The translations under genes and the position numbers were made by a program. DNA of 47,390 bases from Escherichia phage PhiR30_1: sequence record PV340558; one strand, 5' to 3'. Positions 5,541 through 6,979 of this stretch are shown here, piece after piece; within the stretch, counting starts at the first letter, position 1, and the number at the start of each line of letters is the position of its first letter. Below the pieces are notes generated by a model that did no database searches, was not told the origin of the DNA, and worked only from the letters and a program-made list of their open reading frames with translations.

Positions 5541-5569
5541 CAAAAGAAAACCCGGCACGGTGGCCGGGT
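5541..5569 (-). terminator. Intrinsic terminator just downstream of the 310-aa gene (t-imm analog)
   Basis: CCCGGC-acggtg-GCCGGG hairpin followed on the minus strand by a U-rich run (rc TTTTCTTTTG). Confidence 0.6.
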
Positions 5570-5576
5570 AGCATCA

Positions 5577-6509
5577 CTATTCGATTTTTTTAACCATGTA
5601 GTTACGTCGTGATGTTCCTAATCTTTCATTGTGAATCTCAGAAACGCTTACTACGAGCGATATTCGTTCACCAACTTTATATTTACTTTGAATTTCTCCT
5701 AACATATCAATCGGATAAGAAGCCTTTATTTTTCCAAGCTCGCTTGCAATCTCCAATTTCCCGTACATGGATAAAATAGCAAGTTCGCCTGATATATGCT
5801 CATCCGGTAGCTGAATGACCTTCGTTAAAGCTAAGCGAGCATTCAGTTTTTTTATATCTTCTGAAGAAATTGACACTTGTCTGGTACCATCACTTAAAGG
5901 TCCAATCCAAGTAAGATCAAAGTTAAGACTATATTTTTCGCACTCATTTATGATGTTTTTTAGGTTAGCTGTTGATTGCGAACCAATTTCGGCAATTTTA
6001 GCCGTGAATGTTTCTTCATCAATGGATGAGAGTAGTGCAAAAATCTCCTTAACAGCATGACTGGATACTGTTTCGATGAGCTCGCAAGAACCAGTAGAAA
6101 AAGTAACACCTAACTTCGTCGAACCTGGACGCAAGTCTGCCAATCTCATGTCTAATGATTTTTTAACATCAATCGGCACACGACTAGAATCTTTCCCAGA
6201 TCCAAGTCGGTAAACTGCTTTCTGTACAAGGGATGCGAGATTACCTGAAATTACAGATAGAATATCTAACGGAATAGACCCGAAATCGACCAAAACACCT
6301 TTTAATCTCAACTCCATGAAATCACGTAAAGGATGTTGGTTATCGATTGCACGTTGTCTCTCTCGGAGATCGCTCAGATGGGAGTCAAGTGATCTAAATA
6401 TAATGTCATCAGCAAATGATCTCCCCTTATTTTGAGCAAGCAGATCCACATCGCGTTGAATGAACGCAATTCGCTCCTTGAGGGAGTTGAATGTTTTTTC
6501 TTCGCTCAT
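5577..6509 (-). CDS. Hypothetical 310-aa protein, second gene of the rex-position operon
   Basis: 4-nt ATGA overlap with upstream gene; AT-rich; no transmembrane segment or catalytic motif recognised. Confidence 0.7.
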   Translation of the reverse strand: MSEEKTFNSLKERIAFIQRDVDLLAQNKGRSFADDIIFRSLDSHLSDLRERQRAIDNQHPLRDFMELRLKGVLVDFGSIPLDILSVISGNLASLVQKAVYRLGSGKDSSRVPIDVKKSLDMRLADLRPGSTKLGVTFSTGSCELIETVSSHAVKEIFALLSSIDEETFTAKIAEIGSQSTANLKNIINECEKYSLNFDLTWIGPLSDGTRQVSISSEDIKKLNARLALTKVIQLPDEHISGELAILSMYGKLEIASELGKIKASYPIDMLGEIQSKYKVGERISLVVSVSEIHNERLGTSRRNYMVKKIE

Positions 6510-6979
6510 AACATTACCCTCACGAGGCCTTTAGGATTCTCCTTCCGATCAAAACCAAACCACCCTCTCCAGTAACTTCGCCTTTCACTATAATCGATTT
6601 CTGGATGATTTTCAGGCAGCAAAAGAACGTCAATGCTGTAGTTTTCTTTAATAAAATCTCTATTTAACAATGAGCTAACCAATGGCATCAGCGTGTTTGG
6701 CAAAGAGTTTAGGGCCAAATAATCGACGACCACGAGTATATCTATGTCATCAGGTTCAGGTTTCTCTGTAGTGAATGAACCATCGATCCACACTTCAGAG
6801 AAACATAGACACTGCTGATTAACAAGTTTAAATTGCTCAATAAGCTGTATAAAATTACAGTATAGCATACTTCTTCTAACGGATTTTGGGAAGGTGTCGA
6901 CACAAAGAGACTTGATGCCATCACTATCCATATCATGAAATCCTGCTGTAAGAAGAGGTGGGAAGCTAGGCTTTTCCAT
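6506..6979 (-). CDS. Nucleotidyltransferase-fold protein (Pol-beta superfamily), first gene of the rex-position operon
   Basis: 157 aa; WIDGSFTTEKPEPDDIDILVVV fits the G[GS]-x9-13-DxD signature; AGGA Shine-Dalgarno 6 nt before ATG; immediately downstream of cI on the same strand. Confidence 0.7.
   Translation of the reverse strand: MEKPSFPPLLTAGFHDMDSDGIKSLCVDTFPKSVRRSMLYCNFIQLIEQFKLVNQQCLCFSEVWIDGSFTTEKPEPDDIDILVVVDYLALNSLPNTLMPLVSSLLNRDFIKENYSIDVLLLPENHPEIDYSERRSYWRGWFGFDRKENPKGLVRVML

Follow-up and report, generated by a model that had tools for sequence, protein, structure and literature searches.

Organisation of the locus

In the genome of Escherichia phage PhiR30_1 (sequence record PV340558), whose 47,390 nucleotides constitute the window analysed here, two genes of the minus strand, designated A (157 aa) and B (310 aa), lie between the cI repressor gene and the leftward operator-promoter region OL/PL. 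The pair is here assigned to the class of two-gene conflict modules centred on a nucleotidyltransferase (NTase), with an uncharacterised effector as the second component. The reading developed below, to which we give somewhat less than an even chance, is that of a lysogen-expressed module of the abortive-infection type in which the NTase A restrains the effector B. A preliminary description, made from the letters of the sequence, had already pointed to this two-gene module; the observation is confirmed overall and its interpretation is partly supported. The features of the locus are the following:

6506-6979, minus strand: gene A, a DUF6932/PDC-M63A minimal NTase of the Pol-beta fold, 157 aa
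5577-6509, minus strand: gene B, the PDC-M63B partner, 310 aa, coupled to A via an ATGA overlap
5541-5569, minus strand: intrinsic terminator closing the cI-A-B unit, also the left boundary of the cassette (terminator scan and folding)
6980-7060, minus strand: cI-A spacer of 81 nt with the Shine-Dalgarno sequence AAGGA (sequence, promoter and terminator scan)
7061-7753, minus strand: cI-type repressor (HTH and S24 peptidase class), which opens the leftward lysogenic operon (open reading frame)
7761-7789, minus strand: PRM-like promoter TTGACC-17-TAAATT (promoter scan), a match to the consensus with a putative function
5365-5460, no strand assigned: OL-like operator region (repeat analysis and promoter scan)
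7864-8091, divergent from cI: cro-like gene

The listing of open reading frames (ORFs) returns A and B at the positions first described, and the punctuation reported for them holds as well: the TGA stop of A shares ATGA with the ATG of B, a Shine-Dalgarno sequence, AAGGACTTAGG, stands 5' of the ATG of gene A, and the hairpin at 5569-5550 on the minus strand is followed by TTTCTTTTGC. This hairpin has a stem of 7 bp including 6 GC pairs and a folding energy of -13.9 kcal/mol (z = -2.2 against shuffled sequences), and no further terminator-like site is found on the minus strand within 5100-8200. The AT-richness attributed to the module is real, with a GC content of 0.36-0.42 over 5400-7000, while the exo/bet/gam and replication genes reach 0.51-0.54.

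In lambda, rexA-rexB occupy the slot between cI and OL/PL. The earlier placement of A-B in this slot, inside the immunity region, stands, since cI lies upstream and OL/PL, recognised by an OR-like repeat together with a PL-like promoter, lies downstream. The segment 5365-5413 repeats the OR region at 7782-7830 (49 nt, 71% identity), with more inverted repeats to 7812-7867, and the PL-like promoter found by the scan at 5399-5371 on the minus strand is directed away from A-B. Regarding cI itself, the identical prophage gene is annotated in RefSeq as an XRE family regulator (693 nt, i.e. window 7061-7753), and the repressor hidden Markov model (HMM) seeded with it matches Pfam-verified HTH/S24 repressors. 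The -10 element of the PRM-like promoter ends 8 nt 5' of the cI ATG (7753), which implies a near-leaderless transcript and suggests that the cI messenger is leaderless or near-leaderless, like that of lambda. No terminator is found between the PRM-like promoter and 5569, nor any terminator-like element on the minus strand of the cI-A spacer. Co-transcription of A-B with cI from PRM/PRE would be the simplest reading; as part of the repressor (PRM) operon, A and B would therefore be made in the lysogen.

Protein A, a minimal nucleotidyltransferase of the DUF6932 family

Protein A matches the Pfam family DUF6932 (PF22014) with 92.5 bits for a gathering cutoff of 27, residues 8-155 aligning with profile positions 7-141 of 142, and further corresponds to phrog_9194 and to the PADLOC model PDC-M63A (PDLC04744, E = 7.4e-43, residues 1-156). 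It is acidic, with an isoelectric point (pI) of 4.8 for a family median of 5.0. The Pol-beta NTase motif reported at the outset, WIDGSFTTEKPEPDDIDILVVV, covers residues 64-85, and both the fold and the conserved residues agree with it:

6740-6790, minus strand: catalytic motif W64-x-D66-G67-S68 ... D78-x-D80, conserved in 45 homologues and on fitting strands in the model
6629-6631: third carboxylate D117, near-invariant (at least 90%) in the 45 homologues

As defined here, the Pol-beta superfamily is recognised by hG[GS], x9-13 and [DE]h[DE]h, plus a third carboxylate on a later strand and an alpha/beta NTase core. Protein A belongs to it, with G67-S68, nine residues, D78-x-D80 and D117. In its structure model, obtained at a predicted local distance difference test score (pLDDT) of 96, the catalytic residues lie on the strands expected of a Pol-beta NTase. 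Across the 45 homologues (35-80% identity), G13, R36, W64, D66, G67, S68, T71, K73, P76, D78, D80, W137, R145, K150 and G151 are invariant, and D117, R134, R138, G139 and F141 are near-invariant. By its residues, A thus looks catalytically competent.

The nearest solved structures include ANT(3'')(9), AAD(9), the MNT antitoxins 8xeh_E, 7ae2_B and 5yep_A, and HI0073. Sequence searches of PDB chains, with single sequences and family profiles, gave nothing significant for A or for B, and no match of A to AbiEii, DUF1814, MenT, SMODS or CD-NTase was found in Pfam or PADLOC. Protein A is a distinct branch of minimal NTases, with an N-terminal extension of its own and a C-terminal SYWRGWFGFDR...PKG motif. 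The tail bearing this motif (residues 132-155, window 6515-6586) was also compared with ribosome modulation factor, for which the match is not significant (E = 0.35).

Protein B, an uncharacterised partner of three structural parts

Protein B is identical to WP_001288169.1, corresponds to phrog_6603 (5e-177) and matches six PDC-M63B models of PADLOC, the best at 4e-42. It falls in no Pfam family, and a Pfam search across 123 B homologues gave scattered single matches only. A profile search of 1.8 billion representatives delineates a family of 278 representatives at 50% identity, nearly all of about 300-330 aa in length among the 150 listed of the 278. The AlphaFold2 model of B, built on the alignment of the 123 homologues, reaches a pLDDT of 93.1 and shows an N-terminal helical hairpin, an alpha/beta middle region (residues 61-228) for which there is no structural match among the matches listed, and a C-terminal barrel resembling, by structure comparison, SSB and tRNA-anticodon-binding domains:

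6339-6482, minus strand: N-terminal helical hairpin of B, residues 10-57 (helices 10-25 and 32-57; AlphaFold2 model)
6117-6125, minus strand: G129-S130-T131 of B, a candidate modification or ligand site (alignment and model)
5580-5825, minus strand: C-terminal OB-fold barrel of B, residues 229-310, five strands and one helix (AlphaFold2 model)

Conservation is sparse in the deep alignment. G129-S130 is the only invariant pair across the 123 diverse homologues, followed by T/S131 (90%) and R/K132 (80%), and G129-S130-T131 sits in a beta-hairpin loop modelled with lower confidence. The other conserved positions are W201, G77, P80-L81, G105, G176 and G241, besides two similar strand motifs, E-L-R-L-x-G at 66-71 and D-L-R-L-A at 120-124.

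The preliminary description had seen neither a recognisable motif nor a transmembrane segment in B, rightly so, and had ventured a HEPN-like hint in an RAIDNQH (Rx5H) stretch, which fades on alignment, as R53 is kept in 44 and H59 in 15 of the 123 homologues. HEPN identity is ruled out for B, the Rx5H being unconserved and the model devoid of a four-helix bundle. RexB is a polytopic membrane protein, and A and B have no transmembrane segment; no hydrophobic segment of either reaches a Kyte-Doolittle 19-residue mean of 1.6, which rules out A or B as a membrane protein or RexB analogue.

Coupling of A and B and exchange of the partner

The association of the two genes is nearly universal in the loci collected by searching with the A alignment. 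B lies directly downstream of A on the same strand in all 83 loci formed by 80 viral contigs and three annotated loci (A identity down to 27%), and in 76-77 of the 80 loci from a collection of one genome per species, that is about 160 of 163 loci for both sets together. The 4-nt ATGA overlap is kept in 61 of 67 distinct cassettes. Such a conserved overlap is typical of proteins needed in fixed proportion, as in complexes or toxin-antitoxin pairs. With full-length homologues of both across many phyla, A and B are not chance ORFs.

In a few loci the partner differs. In two metagenome-assembled genomes, one of KSB1 (L114) and one of the Rhodothermales (L117), the gene after A matches only the first ~60 residues of B, with ~25 bits and including the EPDNFA loop motif, and continues after the hairpin with a coiled coil and two hydrophobic segments of membrane-spanning length. 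This variant partner forms six 90%-identity clusters in a database of 5.8 billion proteins and, with two more independent contigs in which it follows a DUF6932 gene with a 4-nt overlap, is found after DUF6932 in four independent contigs, three of them with the 4-nt overlap. Since the variant keeps only the hairpin of B, the hairpin emerges as the fixed part linked to A, and what follows it as interchangeable. By analogy, this exchange would follow a pattern known from effector-swapping defence systems.

These data bear on a CBASS-like alternative, in which infection would turn on A and the nucleotide signal made by A would bind and activate B. CBASS combines a CD-NTase/SMODS protein of ~300 aa with an effector bearing a nucleotide-sensing domain, an arrangement absent from A-B: A has about half the size of a CD-NTase and no SMODS or CD-NTase match in Pfam or PADLOC. 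Furthermore, the conservation of the ATGA overlap points to a complex of fixed ratio more than to a diffusible signal, and the one region that both partner types share, the helical hairpin, is not among the known nucleotide sensors. Such signalling by A is thus judged very unlikely.

Loss of B and the direction of regulation

B is frameshifted beside an intact A in four loci (L013, L100, L103 and L122) and truncated in another (L136), and A occurs alone, without B, in L140 and L158. These cases fit B as a tolerated loss, from which it would follow that A is non-toxic alone; the loss of B is tolerable if B is the harmful component. To the same group belongs an event at the junction of the two genes in E. 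coli OkiPb01716 (NZ_AP042701.1; positions 4933-6200 of locus L166), where an IS3-family element has inserted in an otherwise identical prophage, replacing the last few codons of A (leaving 154 aa) and separating it from an intact B.

The same pattern helps to weigh the opposite assignment of roles, in which A would be a MenT/AbiEii-like toxic NTase acting on the 3' ends of tRNA or other nucleic acids and B its antitoxin, sensor or targeting subunit. NTase toxins are established in the AbiE and MenAT systems. Of the two proteins, only A has a clear catalytic site, and the OB-fold of B, like that of SSB and tRNA-anticodon-binding domains, could supply substrate binding; the result would be a two-component NTase that divides catalysis and binding between separate proteins. 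Disruption of B beside an intact A in at least four loci, together with the solitary A of two others, would however be unexpected if A needed neutralising. Besides, A is acidic (pI 4.8-5.0), small (157 aa) and devoid of the C-terminal domain of DUF1814 toxins; it has no AbiEii or MenT match in Pfam or PADLOC, the gene order is opposite to that of AbiEi-AbiEii, and membrane segments in place of the body of B fit an effector better than an antitoxin. On balance, this reversal of roles is considered unlikely, and restraint of B by A is retained as the reading to be developed.

Distribution, mobility and genomic contexts

DNA at least 99% identical to the cassette is found in 98 of 5,426 complete E. 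coli genomes (~2%), always on the chromosome and in a lambdoid prophage, the copy of E. coli M8 adjoining a tRNA-Arg gene. In the species collection, 116 relatives occur among 100,044 species and, for the matches listed, extend over Proteobacteria, Bacteroidota, Firmicutes, Nitrospirae, Verrucomicrobia, Acidobacteria, a candidate-phyla-radiation genome, Cyanobacteria and others.

The OL/PL DNA (window 5400-5569) recurs at 90-94% identity in thirteen lambdoid phages. The match ends at 5568-5569 in 12 of these, and in the thirteenth, PhiR26_1, it is taken up again only at the end of cI. Of two phages inspected, PhiR26_1 has a gene for a 126-aa lipoprotein in the slot and PhiR70_1 has three unrelated genes. 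Diverged A-B pairs follow unrelated repressors in mEpX1 (gp42/gp41) and in Erwinia phage vB_EhrS_59 (gp53/gp52). Because closely related OL/PL DNA (about 92% identical) occurs with other cargo and A-B occurs with unrelated repressors, the slot is a cargo hot spot and A-B a mobile cassette.

Of the 77 viral-contig loci with sufficient sequence upstream of A, 63 have a same-strand CI-type repressor of the HTH/S24 class there at a distance of no more than 1.5 kb, and 54 have it within 400 bp; the repressors differ widely in sequence. By comparison, such a repressor is present upstream in just 9 of 71 species-genome loci. The pair is embedded in a type I restriction-modification (RM) operon in Flavobacterium laiguense (HsdM-HsdS-A-B-HsdR on one strand; L131, 4919-12482) and directly follows HsdR in Paenibacillus pinistramenti (L157, 4879-9442), so that the association with type I RM is seen in two unrelated phyla. 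Other copies adjoin rve/Mu-type transposases or belong to an integrase/mer-transposon island that also carries a RecD2-like helicase and a GmrSD_C-domain gene; in Bermanella, A-B is solitary, flanked by an imuA-imuB-dnaE2-like cassette and an RND efflux operon. As copies sit in RM operons, in mobile islands or on their own, the cassette is autonomous, and the repressor linkage is best seen as the prophage mode of expression rather than as a functional dependence on the repressor. By association, these contexts would read as classic defence-gene signatures. In some viral contigs, a gene other than that of a repressor precedes A-B and encodes a Mor-family activator, an NYN-domain protein or a Prim-Pol/DUF3987 primase (in the order L072, L079 and L067: L072, 4565-4903; L079, 3675-4223; L067, 2635-4785), neighbours which suggest carriage by satellites or Mu-like elements.

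Catalogue status and experimental record

The initial view that the module corresponds to no known system has to be abandoned. Adjacent genes match the PADLOC models PDC-M63A and PDC-M63B over their full length with a 4-nt overlap, and the A-B pair is a member of the PDC-M63 candidate family; B is also listed by DefensePredictor. The PDC systems comprise 145 candidates chosen as homologous cassettes embedded in BREX, DISARM or type I RM (10.1101/2024.01.29.577857), among which PDC-M63 is a catalogue entry without mechanism, an untested candidate (bioRxiv 10.1101/2024.01.29.577857). This entry covers neither the repressor-operon linkage nor the fold assignments nor the membrane variant. In Table S5 of DefensePredictor, WP_001288169.1 appears as a "Predicted novel defense gene", with a mean log-odds of 5.77 for a cutoff of 4, and is absent from the tables of cloned and tested units (PMC13092281). 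Matches to other PADLOC families, PDC-M32A and PDC-M02B, are at E ~0.005-0.01 and were treated as noise, and an NCBIfam search of A and B likewise returned noise only. In the literature search, DUF6932, the WP accessions and the PHROG identifiers occurred in no paper's main text, and nothing functional on gp41/gp42 is apparent from the titles and abstracts of papers naming mEpX1. In databases, the module thus stands as PDC-M63, DUF6932 and a DefensePredictor entry.

The only experiment found is the deletion of PDC-M63AB in E. coli NILS69, which had no effect against 10 virulent double-stranded DNA phages (PMC12409345). This result weighs against any defence claim, within its limits of ten virulent phages only and native expression. 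Of the defence or toxin-antitoxin-like character first proposed for the module, the contextual part has gained from the repressor operon and the type I RM operons, whereas defence is undemonstrated and the NILS69 deletion was without phenotype.

A role other than anti-phage defence has to be weighed here, whereby A-B would be an addiction module or a lysogeny helper of benefit to the element, acting, for example, on element stability or, via single-stranded DNA binding, on induction or on SOS sensing. The tight link to LexA-like S24 repressors in prophages, the SSB-type OB-fold of B, the negative outcome of the sole phage challenge and the imuA-imuB-dnaE2-like cassette beside the Bermanella copy all speak for it. 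Nevertheless, only 9 of the 71 species-genome copies have the repressor upstream, the copies in type I RM operons and generic mobile islands show no dependence on it, and two context-based predictors of defence flag A-B. A purely non-defensive role is regarded as distinctly unlikely, and the comparison below returns to the abortive-infection type of module with B as the effector.

Comparison with characterised systems

HEPN-MNT (HepT/MntA), a type VII toxin-antitoxin system, has a comparable layout: its first gene encodes an acidic minimal Pol-beta NTase of small size, and the gene of the partner is coupled to it downstream. Solved MNT antitoxins are among the closest structures to A. Unlike in HEPN-MNT, however, the partner is not a HEPN protein, having neither the four-helix bundle nor a conserved Rx4-6H; B is twice the size of the HEPN partner, with its OB-fold and a middle domain without match among the matches listed, and A has family-specific N- and C-terminal additions including SYWRGWFGFDR.

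Hailong (HalB/HalA) and Clover (CloB/CloA), as described in PMC12265719, resemble A-B as two-gene operons combining a small Pol-beta NTase with D-x-D and an effector that is toxic unless restrained. According to the same description, NTase families of the Hailong/Clover type pair with different effectors (PMC12265719). By analogy, the OB-fold of B or the membrane segments of the variant could act as a signal-gated effector, but B itself is not an ion channel or an HD dNTPase, and the stop/start overlap of A-B hints at a stable complex.

With lambda RexA/RexB, A-B shares the slot downstream of cI in the immunity region, the terminator before OL/PL and the AT-rich character of the cargo. Neither A nor B has a Rex match in Pfam, PADLOC, PHROGs or NCBIfam, and position alone is a common trait; the gene for BstA, by its description, also lies beside a prophage repressor (PMC8585504). 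AbiE (AbiEi/AbiEii) and MenAT are two-gene modules around an NTase of the Pol-beta fold tied to abortive infection, like the module proposed here, but in A-B no DUF1814-type toxin follows its antitoxin gene: A gives no match to DUF1814/AbiEii, reaches half the length of these toxins (~280-300 aa), is encoded first and survives the loss of B in several genomes.

Proposed mechanism

In the mechanism proposed for A-B, A would be an active minimal NTase serving as a guard or antitoxin-like regulator, and B would be the effector. Translational coupling would provide both in fixed proportion, and they would associate through the N-terminal hairpin of B, the putative A-linked adaptor. In the uninfected cell, A could nucleotidylate B covalently, as MNT AMPylates HEPN, with either S40 of the hairpin or the loop of the invariant S130 as candidate acceptor site. 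Alternatively, A could make an inhibitory (oligo)nucleotide held by B, for instance in the OB-fold, as in Hailong and Clover. Infection would end the restraint, and the middle and OB domains of B, or the membrane segments of the variant, would be freed to arrest the cell. A toxic effector restrained by an NTase has a precedent in HEPN-MNT, where MntA AMPylates HepT (PMC7641770, PMC11586414), and the logic of an inhibitory nucleotide has been shown for Clover (PMC12265719) and, as cited there, extends to Hailong and Panoptes.

Several observations weigh against this mechanism, in addition to the NILS69 deletion. B is without a recognisable toxic or catalytic motif. Its OB domain is roughly neutral (median pI ~7) rather than basic; conserved aromatic or basic residues are few there and the surface is poorly conserved, so that binding of nucleic acids or oligonucleotides is plausible and not assured. 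The membrane variant has neither S130 nor the OB-fold, so that a single acceptor or ligand site shared by both partner types would have to be in the hairpin. Finally, the count of B pseudogenes is small and biased, since the loci were found by searching for A.

Other features of the window

Beyond OL/PL, the interval from the PL-like promoter to kil has no annotated N-type antiterminator. It does contain, on the minus strand, an ORF of 79 aa (window 5058-5297) whose arginine-rich start, RLRGVRGVKRTRERR, recalls N-protein RNA-binding motifs; this ORF has no Pfam match and overlaps the kil ORF listed at 4886-5128 (kil end in RefSeq: 5092). On the other side of the switch, the gene in the cII position (8116-8661, plus strand) encodes a YdaT_toxin-domain protein (Pfam E = 5.6e-29) and not a lambda-type CII.

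A second AT-rich island, at 10600-12160 after ren (GC 0.32-0.41), is probably another cargo cluster. It contains two overlapping lipoprotein-like genes on the plus strand, 11151-11711 (186 aa, with a signal peptide ending in LTGC) and 11708-12160 (150 aa, with LVGC and a weak glycine-zipper match), as well as a small, very hydrophobic ORF of 68 aa on the minus strand (10703-10909).

Significance

This analysis adds to the catalogue entries the folds of both proteins, the near-universal coupling of A then B, the contrast between a repressor-operon rule in prophages and type I RM embedding elsewhere, and the hairpin-plus-membrane variant. The slot 3' of cI is where lysogen-expressed exclusion genes, e.g. 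rexAB, are classically found, and A-B offers a clean test case for it, being compact, confidently modelled, present in ~2% of complete E. coli genomes and spread over many phyla. As two computational screens designate the pair as defensive and the sole experiment is negative, a resolution would help to calibrate such predictions.

If A does restrain B, the logic of an NTase that checks a toxic effector, as in HEPN-MNT, Hailong, Clover and Panoptes, would be extended to a new effector fold, and the helical hairpin would serve as a portable adaptor. More broadly, it is possible, if doubtful, that the DUF6932 NTases form a phylum-spanning branch of NTase-guarded immunity, in which the NTase docks on a hairpin adaptor and restrains interchangeable effectors by a covalent mark or an inhibitory oligonucleotide. 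The effectors of that branch may be a previously undescribed protein with a middle domain and an OB-fold, or a two-segment membrane protein, and temperate phages, from those of enterobacteria to those of Pseudomonas-like hosts, may carry it in the rexAB slot of their repressor operons.

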